Positions 1,481 through 3,172 of a stretch of DNA of 8,509 nucleotides are shown here, one piece after another; positions within the stretch are counted from its first letter, which is position 1; each line of letters begins with the position of its first letter. The stretch lies in IMG/VR virus record IMGVR_UViG_2541047122_000023; one strand, given 5' to 3'. Source of the stretch: a virus. Lineage: Duplodnaviria > Heunggongvirae > Uroviricota > Caudoviricetes. Under the pieces are notes generated by a model. That model did not search any database. It worked only from the letters and a program-made list of their open reading frames with translations, and had not been told where the DNA came from. The position numbers and the translations under genes were made by a program.

Positions 1481-1509
1481 TGGAAATAAAAAGGCCACGC
1501 AACGTGGCC
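1481..1509 (-). terminator. Intrinsic terminator immediately upstream of the lysis cassette (minus strand)
   Basis: GGCCACG-caa-CGTGGCC (1493-1509) is a 7-bp GC-rich stem with a 3-nt loop. On the minus strand it is followed directly by TTTTTATTTCC (complement of 1492-1482). Confidence 0.55.
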
Positions 1510-1576
1510 ACCAGAATTATTTCCCCACCAGTTCACTTACCTCTTTCACCGTCTGATTAAACCGCTCTGACTCAAG

Positions 1577-1891
1577 TTAAACACCTAACGCCCGACGCCC
1601 CAGCGCCATTGCTGCTTTTATTGTGGAACCGAATCCCATAAAGAAATCAGCAACCAGATCACCAGGTCGACTACTGGCATTGATTATTTGCCTGAGCATA
1701 TCCGCCGGTTTCTCGCACGGATGTTTACCCGGGTAGAACTGAACGGGCTTATGCGTCCTGACATCGGTATAAGGCACGGAGACTGATACGGAGAAATAGC
1801 GCCGGTGAGATTTAAACTCATCCAGCAATTCAGAAGATTTGCAATTCAGTGAATCATGAGATACCACCAACTGGTGGTAGGATTGTCTCAA
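1577..1891 (-). pseudogene. Remnant of a DNA N6/N4 methyltransferase gene (C-terminal catalytic-domain fragment only)
   Basis: Translation contains ...KPVQFYPGKHPCEKPADMLRQIINASSRPGDLVADFFMGFGSTIKAAMALGRRALGV, matching the conserved C-terminal HPxxKP ... DPFxGSGTT ... GRxxIG block of N6_N4 methyltransferases. There is no upstream DPPY-type motif; the frame begins at a TTG right after an in-frame TAG (1892-1894) with no ATG, and the protein ends abruptly after GRRALGV. Homology stops exactly where the AT-rich insert begins. Confidence 0.55.
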
Positions 1892-2060
1892 CTAGTGAGC
1901 TTTATACATTTAAGTGCGATGCACAGATAATAACCACGCCAATGGAATATCACACACAAAATTGATAGAACACTAACAATAAGCCACAAAATAATTCACA
2001 ATTTATTTTTACAGTGGATAAGTAGCAAAGTAGTGAATGTGAATAACGGCTAACTAAGAT

Positions 2061-2089
2061 GAAACAAAAAGCCCCACAATATGTGGGGC
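2061..2089 (-). terminator. Intrinsic terminator downstream of the two-gene AT-rich cassette (minus strand)
   Basis: GCCCCACA-ata-TGTGGGGC (2071-2089) is an 8-bp stem. On the minus strand it is followed by TTTTTGTTTC (complement of 2070-2061). It lies 60 nt past the stop of the 61-aa gene. Confidence 0.6.
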
Positions 2090-2148
2090 TCCTTCGCGAT
2101 TTATAGTAAAATAATCGATTCTCTAGCTGAAAAAATCTTTAAAAATTA

Positions 2149-2334
2149 TCAGCAATACGCAAGTTTTTTACCGTCATCCGGTACTAGTTTGATCACTACA
2201 CCAGGATTCTTACGCTCTAACATCTGAGTTTGACTCCATGTAATACCAAAGGTTTCCATTGGAGATGCATTGCCAGCAAAGAGTTCGGCGACGACTTTAG
2301 CTGCCTCAATCTCTATCTGCTCATGATGTTTCAT
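2149..2334 (-). CDS. Hypothetical small protein, 61 aa (MKHHEQIEIEAAKVVAELFAGNASPMETFGITWSQTQMLERKNPGVVIKLVPDDGKKLAYC)
   Basis: ATG at 2334-2332 is preceded by a strong SD (AAGGGG, 5-nt spacer); the longer 77-aa ORF from 2382 lacks this. Followed by an intrinsic terminator. AT-rich codon usage like the neighbouring 180-aa gene. No recognisable family by recall. Confidence 0.5.
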   Translation of the reverse strand: MKHHEQIEIEAAKVVAELFAGNASPMETFGITWSQTQMLERKNPGVVIKLVPDDGKKLAYC

Positions 2335-2525
2335 AAAAATCCCCTTGTTCAGCACTAAGCTGTAGTTGCTTCTTTGAAGCATAAAGGCAACAAAGTTTGT
2401 TACCTGAAGATGTATAAAGTAAAGCGTAGTACATTTTGTGTGTGCTTTGTGTGGATCCAGATTGCATCAACTAAAAGAGGTTTTCAATACTTTTGTAATG
2501 ATTCTGGAGAAATTAAGAATCTAAC

Positions 2526-3068
2526 TCACACTGATTGGTTAGGTAAAACGCTCCTAAGCACCATTGCGCAACCACCTCGTTCGTAATCAGCAATGTACTC
2601 AAAACCACTTTCAGTATAGTATCTTATTGCCCCATCAACTGGACTAACTAAAGCTATCGAATCAATAGATTCACCCTGAAGGTTCAGAAATCGTGCATAT
2701 GCAGAGAAGCAATCCAAAACGATACCAAGCATCTGATGGTCTAGGTCTTCATGTGCATCATTACGTTTTTCCATCCAGCAAATATGCACCGCATTTTTCG
2801 GCTTACAGTAACACCCAAATGCAAATCCAATAGGCTCCCCACGATAATAAACAACTAGTTTTATCGGGTGTTCTTCCATCATATCCATAAACACTCGCGA
2901 CTTTAGTCCGGGATCCCACCGCAGTTTATTGTTAGCCTTGAGGAACTCCATATCTTTTAGTACCAGCTCGTCGGCATATACGAGCCCTAACGACTTATGA
3001 GGGAAGCGCCCTTTTAAATACTCTGCAACATTTTTAAATACTGCTGTTTGGAAGGCTTGAAACATCAT
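2526..3068 (-). CDS. Hypothetical protein, 180 aa, with a possible GNAT-like acyltransferase core in the C-terminal half
   Basis: Clean 180-codon ORF starting ATG ATG at 3068. The C-terminal half shows a pattern reminiscent of the GNAT fold: hydrophobic strand IKLVVYYRGEPIGFAFG, then HQMLGIVLDCFSAYARFL (a QxxGxx-like stretch), then GAIRYYTESGFEYI (resembling GNAT motif B ending in GF). Assignment is from motif-level resemblance only. AT-rich relative to flanking phage genes. Confidence 0.55.
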   Translation of the reverse strand: MMFQAFQTAVFKNVAEYLKGRFPHKSLGLVYADELVLKDMEFLKANNKLRWDPGLKSRVFMDMMEEHPIKLVVYYRGEPIGFAFGCYCKPKNAVHICWMEKRNDAHEDLDHQMLGIVLDCFSAYARFLNLQGESIDSIALVSPVDGAIRYYTESGFEYIADYERGGCAMVLRSVLPNQSV

Positions 3069-3095
3069 GTCGATCCAGACGAGACGAAAGTTTAA

Positions 3096-3125
3096 ATTCT
3101 ACCTACTCGCCGAATACCATTTCAA
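3096..3125 (-). promoter_or_regulatory. Candidate sigma70 promoter for the AT-rich cassette
   Basis: On the minus strand: TTGAAA (3125-3120), 18-nt spacer, TAGAAT (3101-3096). Predicted start near 3088, about 20 nt upstream of the ATG at 3068. Hand-identified; no scoring matrix applied. Confidence 0.35.
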
Positions 3126-3146
3126 TGCCACACATCTAAAATTCCG

Positions 3147-3172
3147 AAAAAAAACCCGCACATCAGCGGGTT
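3147..3172 (-). terminator. tR'-like intrinsic terminator just downstream of Q and the late promoter; potentially bidirectional
   Basis: AACCCGC-acatca-GCGGGTT (3153-3172) is a 7-bp stem. On the minus strand it is followed by a run of at least 6 T (complement of 3152-3147); on the plus strand it is followed by TTCTACTTTTTAT. Position relative to Q mirrors the lambda pR'-tR' arrangement. Confidence 0.6.

Follow-up and report, generated by a model that had tools for sequence, protein, structure and literature searches.

Processive antitermination by Q over several terminators, and morons flanked by a promoter and a terminator, are textbook features of lambdoid phages. Q-loaded RNA polymerase passes terminators processively (PMC9388147), while morons bring their own promoter and terminator with them (PMC3594210). 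In SfIV the interval from Q to the lysis genes holds a low-GC moron lying between initiation and termination signals (PMC3851460). Terminators are also described within lambdoid late operons, where their roles are stated not to be known (PMC8022706). Here we consider the corresponding interval in an 8,509-nucleotide stretch of DNA from a Caudoviricetes virus (IMG/VR record IMGVR_UViG_2541047122_000023; the whole stretch is referred to as the window). The window comprises the stretch of a lambdoid prophage that is devoted to late control and lysis. All of its substantial genes are on the minus strand, and three predicted intrinsic terminators, T1, T2 and T3, separate its antiterminator gene Q from the holin gene. 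The three terminators very probably have three separate origins, T1 with Q and its late promoter pR', T2 with an inserted moron and T3 with a DNA-methylase module; Q-dependent read-through would deliver polymerase to the lysis genes, and T2 and T3 would shield the holin gene. Three terminators between Q and holin are typical, not unusual. What is new is confined to this uncharacterized moron and its exact placement: records of related phages already annotate T1 and T3, and as a moron terminator T2 is of a textbook kind. The features on which the argument turns are, in the direction of transcription:

3280-4032, minus strand: gene for the antiterminator Q, 250 amino acids (PF03589 Antiterm, E = 8e-53; PDB 7ubm, Q-lambda, E = 1.8e-37)
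3220-3248, minus strand: predicted late promoter pR' (-35 TTGCAT at 3248-3243, 17-nt spacer, -10 TAATAT at 3225-3220)
3208-3213, minus strand: putative sigma-dependent pause element, the -10-like AATGAT, occupying approximately +1 to +6 of the transcript from pR'
3147-3176, minus strand: T1, the predicted tR' (core hairpin CCCGC-UGAUGU-GCGGG at 3170-3155, then U8 at 3154-3147)
1887-3147, minus strand: low-GC moron of 1,261 bp; in SfV-type phages, orf47 and the N-terminal two-thirds of the methylase gene stand in its place
3096-3125, minus strand: predicted sigma-70 promoter of the moron, TTGAAA-18-TAGAAT (best match in the window, at 10 of 12 positions)
2526-3068, minus strand: moron gene 1, encoding a 180-amino-acid protein with a predicted GNAT fold (PHROG 11949, function unknown)
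2149-2334, minus strand: moron gene 2, encoding a conserved 61-amino-acid protein (PHROG 11292, function unknown)
2061-2094, minus strand: T2, the predicted moron terminator (GCCCCACA-UAU-UGUGGGGC at 2089-2071, then UUUUUGUUU at 2070-2062)
1577-1891, minus strand: pseudogene, the 3' remnant of an N6/N4 DNA-methylase gene (PF01555, profile positions 156-209 only)
1484-1509, minus strand: T3, the predicted methylase-module terminator (GGCCACG-UUG-CGUGGCC at 1509-1493, then UUUUUAUUU at 1492-1484)
1105-1440, minus strand: lambda-family holin gene S, the first lysis gene (PF05106, E = 2.6e-27; RefSeq annotation)

A generic terminator scan discriminated poorly in this sequence, returning 20 terminator-like sites against 8.3 expected, and every position on both strands of the whole window was therefore rescored with a d'Aubenton-Carafa-type function. 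A score (d) above 0 was reached by only four sites in the 8.5 kb, namely T2 (39.0), T1 (32.2), T3 (30.0) and T1 read on the plus strand (6.4). Shuffling that preserved dinucleotides (120 replicates) left on average 0.29 sites with d > 0 and 0.008 with d > 25, compared with three observed above the latter value. By the same measure tR' of lambda, an experimentally established terminator, has d = 15.3. Values of nT, the T-tract score, are 5.18 for T1, 4.72 for T2 and 4.55 for T3. T2 and T3 were also the two best minus-strand sites of the generic scan, which displayed T1 on the plus strand only because maximal stem extension consumes its U-tract. Each site combines a GC-rich stem and a loop of 3-8 nt, as expected of intrinsic terminators, with a U-rich tract directly 3' of the stem (U8 in T1, U5GU3 in T2 and U5AU3 in T3), and all three are intergenic and on the gene strand. 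They are not copies of one another, as the hairpins fail to align; the sole direct repeat in 1380-3340 (26 nt, 73% match, 10-nt seed) is estimated to be at about chance level. T1, T2 and T3 are thus predicted to be canonical same-strand intrinsic terminators. This agrees with the initial annotation of the window, made from the sequence alone, which had placed three minus-strand hairpin-plus-U sites at these coordinates, downstream of a pR'-like promoter and together with an inserted cassette that has a promoter of its own. The free energies that it had proposed to calculate, and that might have proved too weak for termination, are -15.9, -20.2 and -12.5 kcal/mol for T1, T2 and T3, respectively.

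The first of the three sites belongs to the Q module. Q is annotated as 'antitermination protein' in genomes of Escherichia coli O157:H7. The protein contains four CxxCxGxG repeats resembling the two-zinc module of DnaJ, with a DnaJ_CXXCXGXG match below the Pfam threshold, and the chains of the Q-lambda structure align to only part of its 250 residues. Beyond the Q gene, the proposed pR' has exactly the geometry of lambda pR' (6 + 17 + 6 + 6 nt, followed by AAYGAT), AACGATGGG occurs at the same offset in lambda and in close relatives of the window, and the promoter/pause block is nearly invariant in nine phages. The promoter agrees with the consensus at only 7 of 12 positions and so is absent from the list produced by the promoter scan; it was called by positional homology and on the near-invariance of the block, which substantiates the pR'-like promoter of the initial annotation. 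Its spacer is the probable Q-binding element (QBE), and for AATGAT a role as the pause element is suggested by the Q-lambda literature (PMC9388147).

T1 itself consists of five GC pairs with an A-U extension and a loop of 6; folded with its A-tract/U-tract extension (3176-3149) it yields the energy given above, with z = -3.7. The hairpin is conserved in nine phages, including SfV, Ayreon, Tritos, PhiR42_1, HannyBb and Stx2k and Stx2c phages, and the SfV and Ayreon records annotate a terminator at the homologous site. Salmonella phage 118970_sal3 has another hairpin at this position, CCUCGC-UUCG-GCGGGG. Taken together, the Q gene, pR', the sigma-dependent pause element and the terminator form what is predicted to be a lambda-Q-type cassette, of which T1 is the tR'. 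Similarity among the nine phages ends a few nucleotides past the T1 U-tract, and what follows varies from phage to phage (cold-shock genes, a 141-amino-acid open reading frame (ORF), tRNAs and stx2, or orf47 and the methylase gene); the stretch downstream of tR' is a known hot spot for cargo. Two copies of the pR'-tR' module are present in each of the records of HannyBb, PhiR63_1 and Salmonella phage 118970_sal3, the second copy in HannyBb lying ~1.8 kb downstream of Q.

If transcription starts at ~3213, the pR' leader that ends at T1 would be ~66 nt long. Short pR'-tR' RNAs are constitutive in lambdoid lysogens, and StxS of Stx phages is a functional, Hfq-dependent small RNA (sRNA) (PMC7547250). 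It is conceivable, albeit unlikely, that T1 serves mainly to generate a comparable regulatory sRNA, which would bind Hfq in the lysogen. The leader ends in a strong hairpin followed by U8, a typical Hfq 3' module, and is conserved in Stx2c and Stx2k phages. This conservation, however, can be accounted for by the pause element and terminator alone, and the leader is far shorter than StxS (258 nt). Furthermore, an Rfam search of 1380-3340 at a permissive E-value returned only matches below the gathering score, the best of which was AgrB (26.6 bits against a threshold of 40), with isrK at 18.9 bits against a threshold of 50.

The second terminator, T2, lies within DNA that is foreign to the closest relatives of the window. 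Homology to SfV is confined to 650-1886 and 3148-4495, and 1887-3147 has no counterpart in SfV or Ayreon. This segment has a GC content of 34-44%, compared with ~48-55% in the flanks, and begins directly after the tR' U-tract, 22 nt before its promoter. That promoter, which the initial annotation had also ascribed to the cassette, has counterparts in the four homologous cassettes examined, each of which has a promoter-like site ~30 nt ahead of the start codon of its first gene. The cassette therefore displays the properties of a moron, namely extra DNA relative to related phages, a deviant base composition and a promoter and terminator of its own, and is predicted to be one in the sense of PMC3594210, moving as a promoter-genes-terminator unit among prophages of Cronobacter, Proteus, Pragia and E. 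coli. The insulation of the cassette proposed in the initial annotation fits the same definition.

The two moron genes encode proteins with no matches in Pfam, NCBIfam or PADLOC; PHROGs assigns them only to families of unknown function. For the 180-amino-acid protein, AlphaFold2 returned a model with a mean predicted local distance difference test (pLDDT) score of 86.9, and all of its top Foldseek matches in the PDB are GNAT acetyltransferases, at a template modelling (TM) score of ~0.5, indicating that the protein adopts a divergent GNAT-like fold in the predicted model. Its homologues constitute a small family in Enterobacterales. The 61-amino-acid protein likewise belongs to a small family, represented by a shallow alignment (80-85% identity), and in other prophages its gene always adjoins that of the GNAT-fold protein. 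The pair follows a related Q/pR' in a Cronobacter prophage, lies between an unrelated PF06530-type Q and the lysis genes in a Proteus prophage, is located past the lysis genes, before a pyocin-like gene and terminase, in a Pragia prophage, and is also present on two metagenomic contigs. A lysogen-expressed role in toxin/immunity, anti-phage defence or host modification is possible. Within E. coli the cassette was detected in 98 of 5,426 complete genomes, in each case over the full query at ≥99% identity and with the truncated methylase annotated alongside, and the uniformity of this set points to one insertion event.

T2 has a perfect 8-bp stem and a loop of 3, and with its extension to 2094 reaches z = -3.9. 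In each of the homologous cassettes (L010, L012, L014 and L016) a strong terminator is found 20-70 nt past the small gene, with a hairpin sequence that differs each time. These comparisons, in which the terminator persists in homologues although its sequence does not, provide good evidence that an autonomous transcription unit has its functional end at T2. The same observation bears on a different interpretation, in which T2, T3 or both are inefficient in vivo and function mainly as 3' stabilizing or processing hairpins in the long late transcript. Three points would be compatible with such a role: terminators are common inside lambdoid late operons, with functions described as unknown (PMC8022706), T3 has an interrupted U-tract (UUUUUAUUU), and its region gives a weak z-score. 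Against this, the stems of T2 and T3 are perfect and GC-rich, five U residues follow each of them directly and both score far above lambda tR', while the presence of a terminator after every cassette homologue, despite full sequence turnover, favours selection on termination of the moron transcript at T2. Inefficiency of these sites is thus considered very unlikely.

Several further elements of the cassette were observed. A weak hairpin-plus-U element lies between the two moron genes on the minus strand at 2385-2405 (AGGUAACAAACUUUGUUGCCU, then UUAUGCUU), and weak terminators are located between the corresponding genes of L012 (1604-1621) and L016 (4650-4671); partial termination here could set the ratio of the two moron products. 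T2 is separated from the methylase remnant by an AT-rich, ORF-free spacer of ~170 bp (1892-2060), in which a plus-strand promoter-like site (1903-1931, 9 of 12 matches) is directed back into the cassette. In the Cronobacter malonaticus contig (L010, 583-850) the cassette follows the related Q/pR' but the tR' hairpin is missing, leaving a U-run only, and in this prophage the cassette terminator may be the first barrier to pR' transcripts.

The third terminator, T3, is associated with the gene that the moron disrupted. RefSeq labels the methylase remnant 'incomplete; missing N-terminus', whereas in SfV and Ayreon the gene is full-length and encodes 350 amino acids. The T3 stem is perfect, with six GC pairs among its 7 bp and a loop of 3. 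The region is 98% identical in SfV, where the hairpin is identical, and ~87% identical in Ayreon, mEp460, cdtI and others, the match stopping at 1453, before the holin ribosome-binding region. The Ayreon variant (GGCCAC-GUCAG-GUGGCC) differs in the loop and closing pair only, and the Ayreon holin is an unrelated, small protein. T3-homologous sites are annotated as terminators in both SfV and Ayreon. As T3 is kept with the methylase 3' end despite the different holin, it would have arrived with the methylase gene and now remain behind a pseudogene; T3 is accordingly assigned, from these alignments, to the methylase module that the moron is predicted to have truncated. The end of its U-tract (1484) is 43 nt from the ATG of the holin gene (1440), close to the ~40 nt reported in the initial annotation. 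Between 1440 and 1458 on the minus strand, upstream of this annotated ATG, a GTG at 1455 is in frame and a further ATG, at 1448, is out of frame. The out-of-frame codon has the better spacing from the GAGG motif, and these additional start codons could constitute a dual-start or translational-control feature.

The number of terminators in related phages is informative in regard to their significance. Strong same-strand terminators between Q and holin were counted with the same d score (in the Stx2k phage up to stx2A, where the locus ends). There is one in lambda (tR' only), in Salmonella phage 118970_sal3 and in the Pragia prophage; two in SfV, Tritos and PhiR42_1; three in Ayreon; four in HannyBb; and at least four in the Stx2k phage. 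Terminator number roughly tracks the amount of inserted cargo. These data bear directly on the emphasis of the initial annotation, that the three terminators may tighten lysis control, and on its stronger form, in which they are a special arrangement, a redundant fail-safe selected to lower basal holin transcription below the level achieved by a single tR', with number and spacing both adaptive. One part of that claim stands: all three sites are on the same strand between pR' and the holin gene, and late transcription must therefore pass all three. The other part, selection for the triple arrangement, is not supported, as each terminator appears to have been inherited with its own module, relatives contain from one to at least four, and the T1 and T3 sites were already annotated in SfV and Ayreon. 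It is true that all three terminators are strong (d = 30-39 versus 15.3 for lambda tR'), that T3 persists though its gene is destroyed, and that extra terminators would be useful now that a constitutive promoter lies downstream of tR'. Module ancestry nevertheless explains each terminator and makes a selected lock unnecessary, the counts in relatives rise and fall with the amount of cargo, T3 is present in phages without the moron, and the retention of T3 in 98 cassette genomes that are ≥99% identical may reflect a single recent event instead of selection. An adaptive triple lock is consequently regarded as decidedly unlikely.

The explanation favoured here, three terminators of separate origin passed by Q-loaded polymerase, suggests the following sequence of events. 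The moron would have inserted right after the tR' U-tract, deleting the 5' two-thirds of the DNA-methylase gene. In the lysogen, constitutive transcripts from pR' would, without Q, stop at T1 after ~66 nt, as they do in Stx phages and lambda (PMC7547250), while the moron promoter would drive the genes for the GNAT-fold and 61-amino-acid proteins; T2 would stop this transcript and T3 would provide a back-up, catching leak-through from T2 before it reaches the holin gene. Upon induction, Q would bind between the -35 and -10 elements of pR', engage polymerase paused at AATGAT and travel with the enzyme as a nozzle on the RNA-exit channel, blocking terminator hairpins over thousands of base pairs (PMC9388147). 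As the Q nozzle prevents the hairpins from forming, Q-loaded polymerase would bypass T1, T2 and T3 and transcribe S, R and Rz, the holin, endolysin and spanin genes. Polymerase that starts at the moron promoter does not pass the QBE and pause site, and would therefore be unable to load Q and stay sensitive to terminators. The binding of Q to the QBE, and the terminator resistance this would confer, are proposed by homology and from the Q-lambda literature (PMC9388147). The mechanism put forward in the initial annotation, Q read-through and insulation, is standard biology and probably correct, with T2 and T3 keeping transcripts of the moron promoter out of the lysis genes.

A number of points weigh against this explanation. 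Promoter activity, termination efficiency and Q-dependent read-through are all predictions from sequence; pR' in particular is assigned by positional homology, given its limited match to the sigma-70 consensus. The z-score over the whole 51-nt T3 stretch is only -1.35, which is attributed to folding of the flanking sequence as well, although the hairpin-plus-U pattern itself is strong. In addition, no sigma-70-like promoter for the intact methylase module of SfV was found at the scan threshold, and T3 may therefore never have ended an independent transcript. It may always have been an intra-operon terminator.

A broader proposition is that the tR' hairpin, and moron terminators in general, double as recombination joints for the exchange of cargo downstream of pR'. 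It derives from three observations: the breakpoints of the nine phages fall together at the U-tract of T1, that tract is followed exactly by the start of the moron, and copies of the tR' hairpin recur. In Ayreon (L002) an exact 24-nt copy of the tR' hairpin and U-tract is present at 3705-3728 and 4382-4405, the two copies bracketing a 677-bp insert with a 141-amino-acid ORF. The Stx2k phage (L006) contains the same tR' hairpin twice, at +124 and +801 from the Q stop codon, the same spacing as in Ayreon and again on both sides of a 141-amino-acid ORF. On this comparison the terminator seems to be the place where the Ayreon and Stx2k cargo was inserted, or the sequence through which it recombined. 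As a general role for terminators the idea is speculative and probably incorrect. If true, the terminator stack would record successive terminator-targeted insertions together with a layered insulation of the holin gene from incoming promoters.

With respect to its source, the window appears to derive from a type of prophage present in E. coli of serotype O157:H7, with strains 7784 and FRIK2533 as examples, and in some other E. coli. Over 1380-3340 its identity to prophages of many E. coli O157:H7 genomes is 100%; for phage record ON470584 (vB_EcoM-689R6) the figure is 99.8%. The latter was considered as proof that lytic growth is possible with this arrangement, and was dropped: the record is a partial genome, and the sole paper that names it surveys phages located in the genomes of clinical isolates. 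Read from right to left, the window begins with an IS3-family transposase fragment, a PerC-like gene, a Dam methylase, a LexA-like gene, RusA, a KilA-N protein and a DUF968 protein. It continues with Q (3280-4032), two small genes and the truncated N6/N4 DNA methylase (1577-1891), and ends with the holin gene (1105-1440), endolysin, Rz/Rz1 and the 3' end of a convergent bor/iss gene. Past position 8216 the window leaves the O157:H7 reference locus, to which it is otherwise 99.8% identical; 8217-8509 encodes the C-terminal portion of a transposase of the IS3 family (rve_3), by which the prophage's replication/early region is interrupted. A tRNA scan of the window found none, while Stx phages have tRNAs in the interval that the moron occupies here.

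The value of these findings lies mostly in clean annotation, and the terminators add no new principle. In a prophage type that is common in O157:H7, the analysis identifies the predicted pR', pause element and tR', and this late-control module is shared with Stx2c and Stx2k phages. It also reveals an uncharacterized two-gene moron in the site that stx occupies in toxin phages, and by analogy the moron is therefore probably expressed in lysogens. T2 and T3 are the only predicted barrier between the constitutive moron promoter, located downstream of tR', and the holin gene, which makes them good targets for studying how prophages keep their lysis genes silent.

Compared with described systems, the window resembles the late cassette of lambda in that its Q is homologous to Q-lambda, the promoter/pause geometry is identical (TTGACT-17-TAAATT, 6 nt, AACGAT in lambda; TTGCAT-17-TAATAT, 6 nt, AATGAT in the window), and an intrinsic terminator lies close downstream. 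The lambda leader, 6S RNA, is 194 nt, longer than the ~66 nt predicted here. The -35 and -10 hexamers and presumed QBE of the window differ in sequence from those of lambda, its Q has a DnaJ-like insert with four CxxCxGxG repeats, and two more strong terminators precede the holin gene, where the score finds only tR' in lambda; the expected mechanism of Q is the same (PMC9388147). StxS, also known as EcOnc15, is like the predicted leader a short transcript from a constitutive pR', ended at tR' upstream of the cargo (PMC7547250), and the pR'-tR' module of the window is of the type found in Stx2c and Stx2k phages; StxS differs in that its 258 nt are processed to 74 nt. The closest relatives are SfV (U82619), which is 95.6% identical over 3148-4495, a segment that includes Q, pR' and tR', and Ayreon (MF807953). 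Both share with the window Q, pR', tR', the methylase 3' end and T3, and their GenBank records carry putative rho-independent terminators at the T1- and T3-homologous sites, whereas intact orf47 and the 350-amino-acid methylase stand in place of the GNAT-fold moron and T2. Ayreon, like the window, has three terminators from Q to holin, but its middle terminator is an exact copy of its own tR' hairpin. Finally, the cassette has in common with other lambdoid morons (HK97 gp15, the SfIV moron between Q and the lysis genes, and stx downstream of tR') that it is extra DNA of deviant GC content with a promoter and a terminator of its own in the Q-to-holin hot spot. It differs from them in its uncharacterized cargo, the GNAT-fold and 61-amino-acid proteins, and in that its insertion destroyed a resident gene instead of merely adding to the phage.

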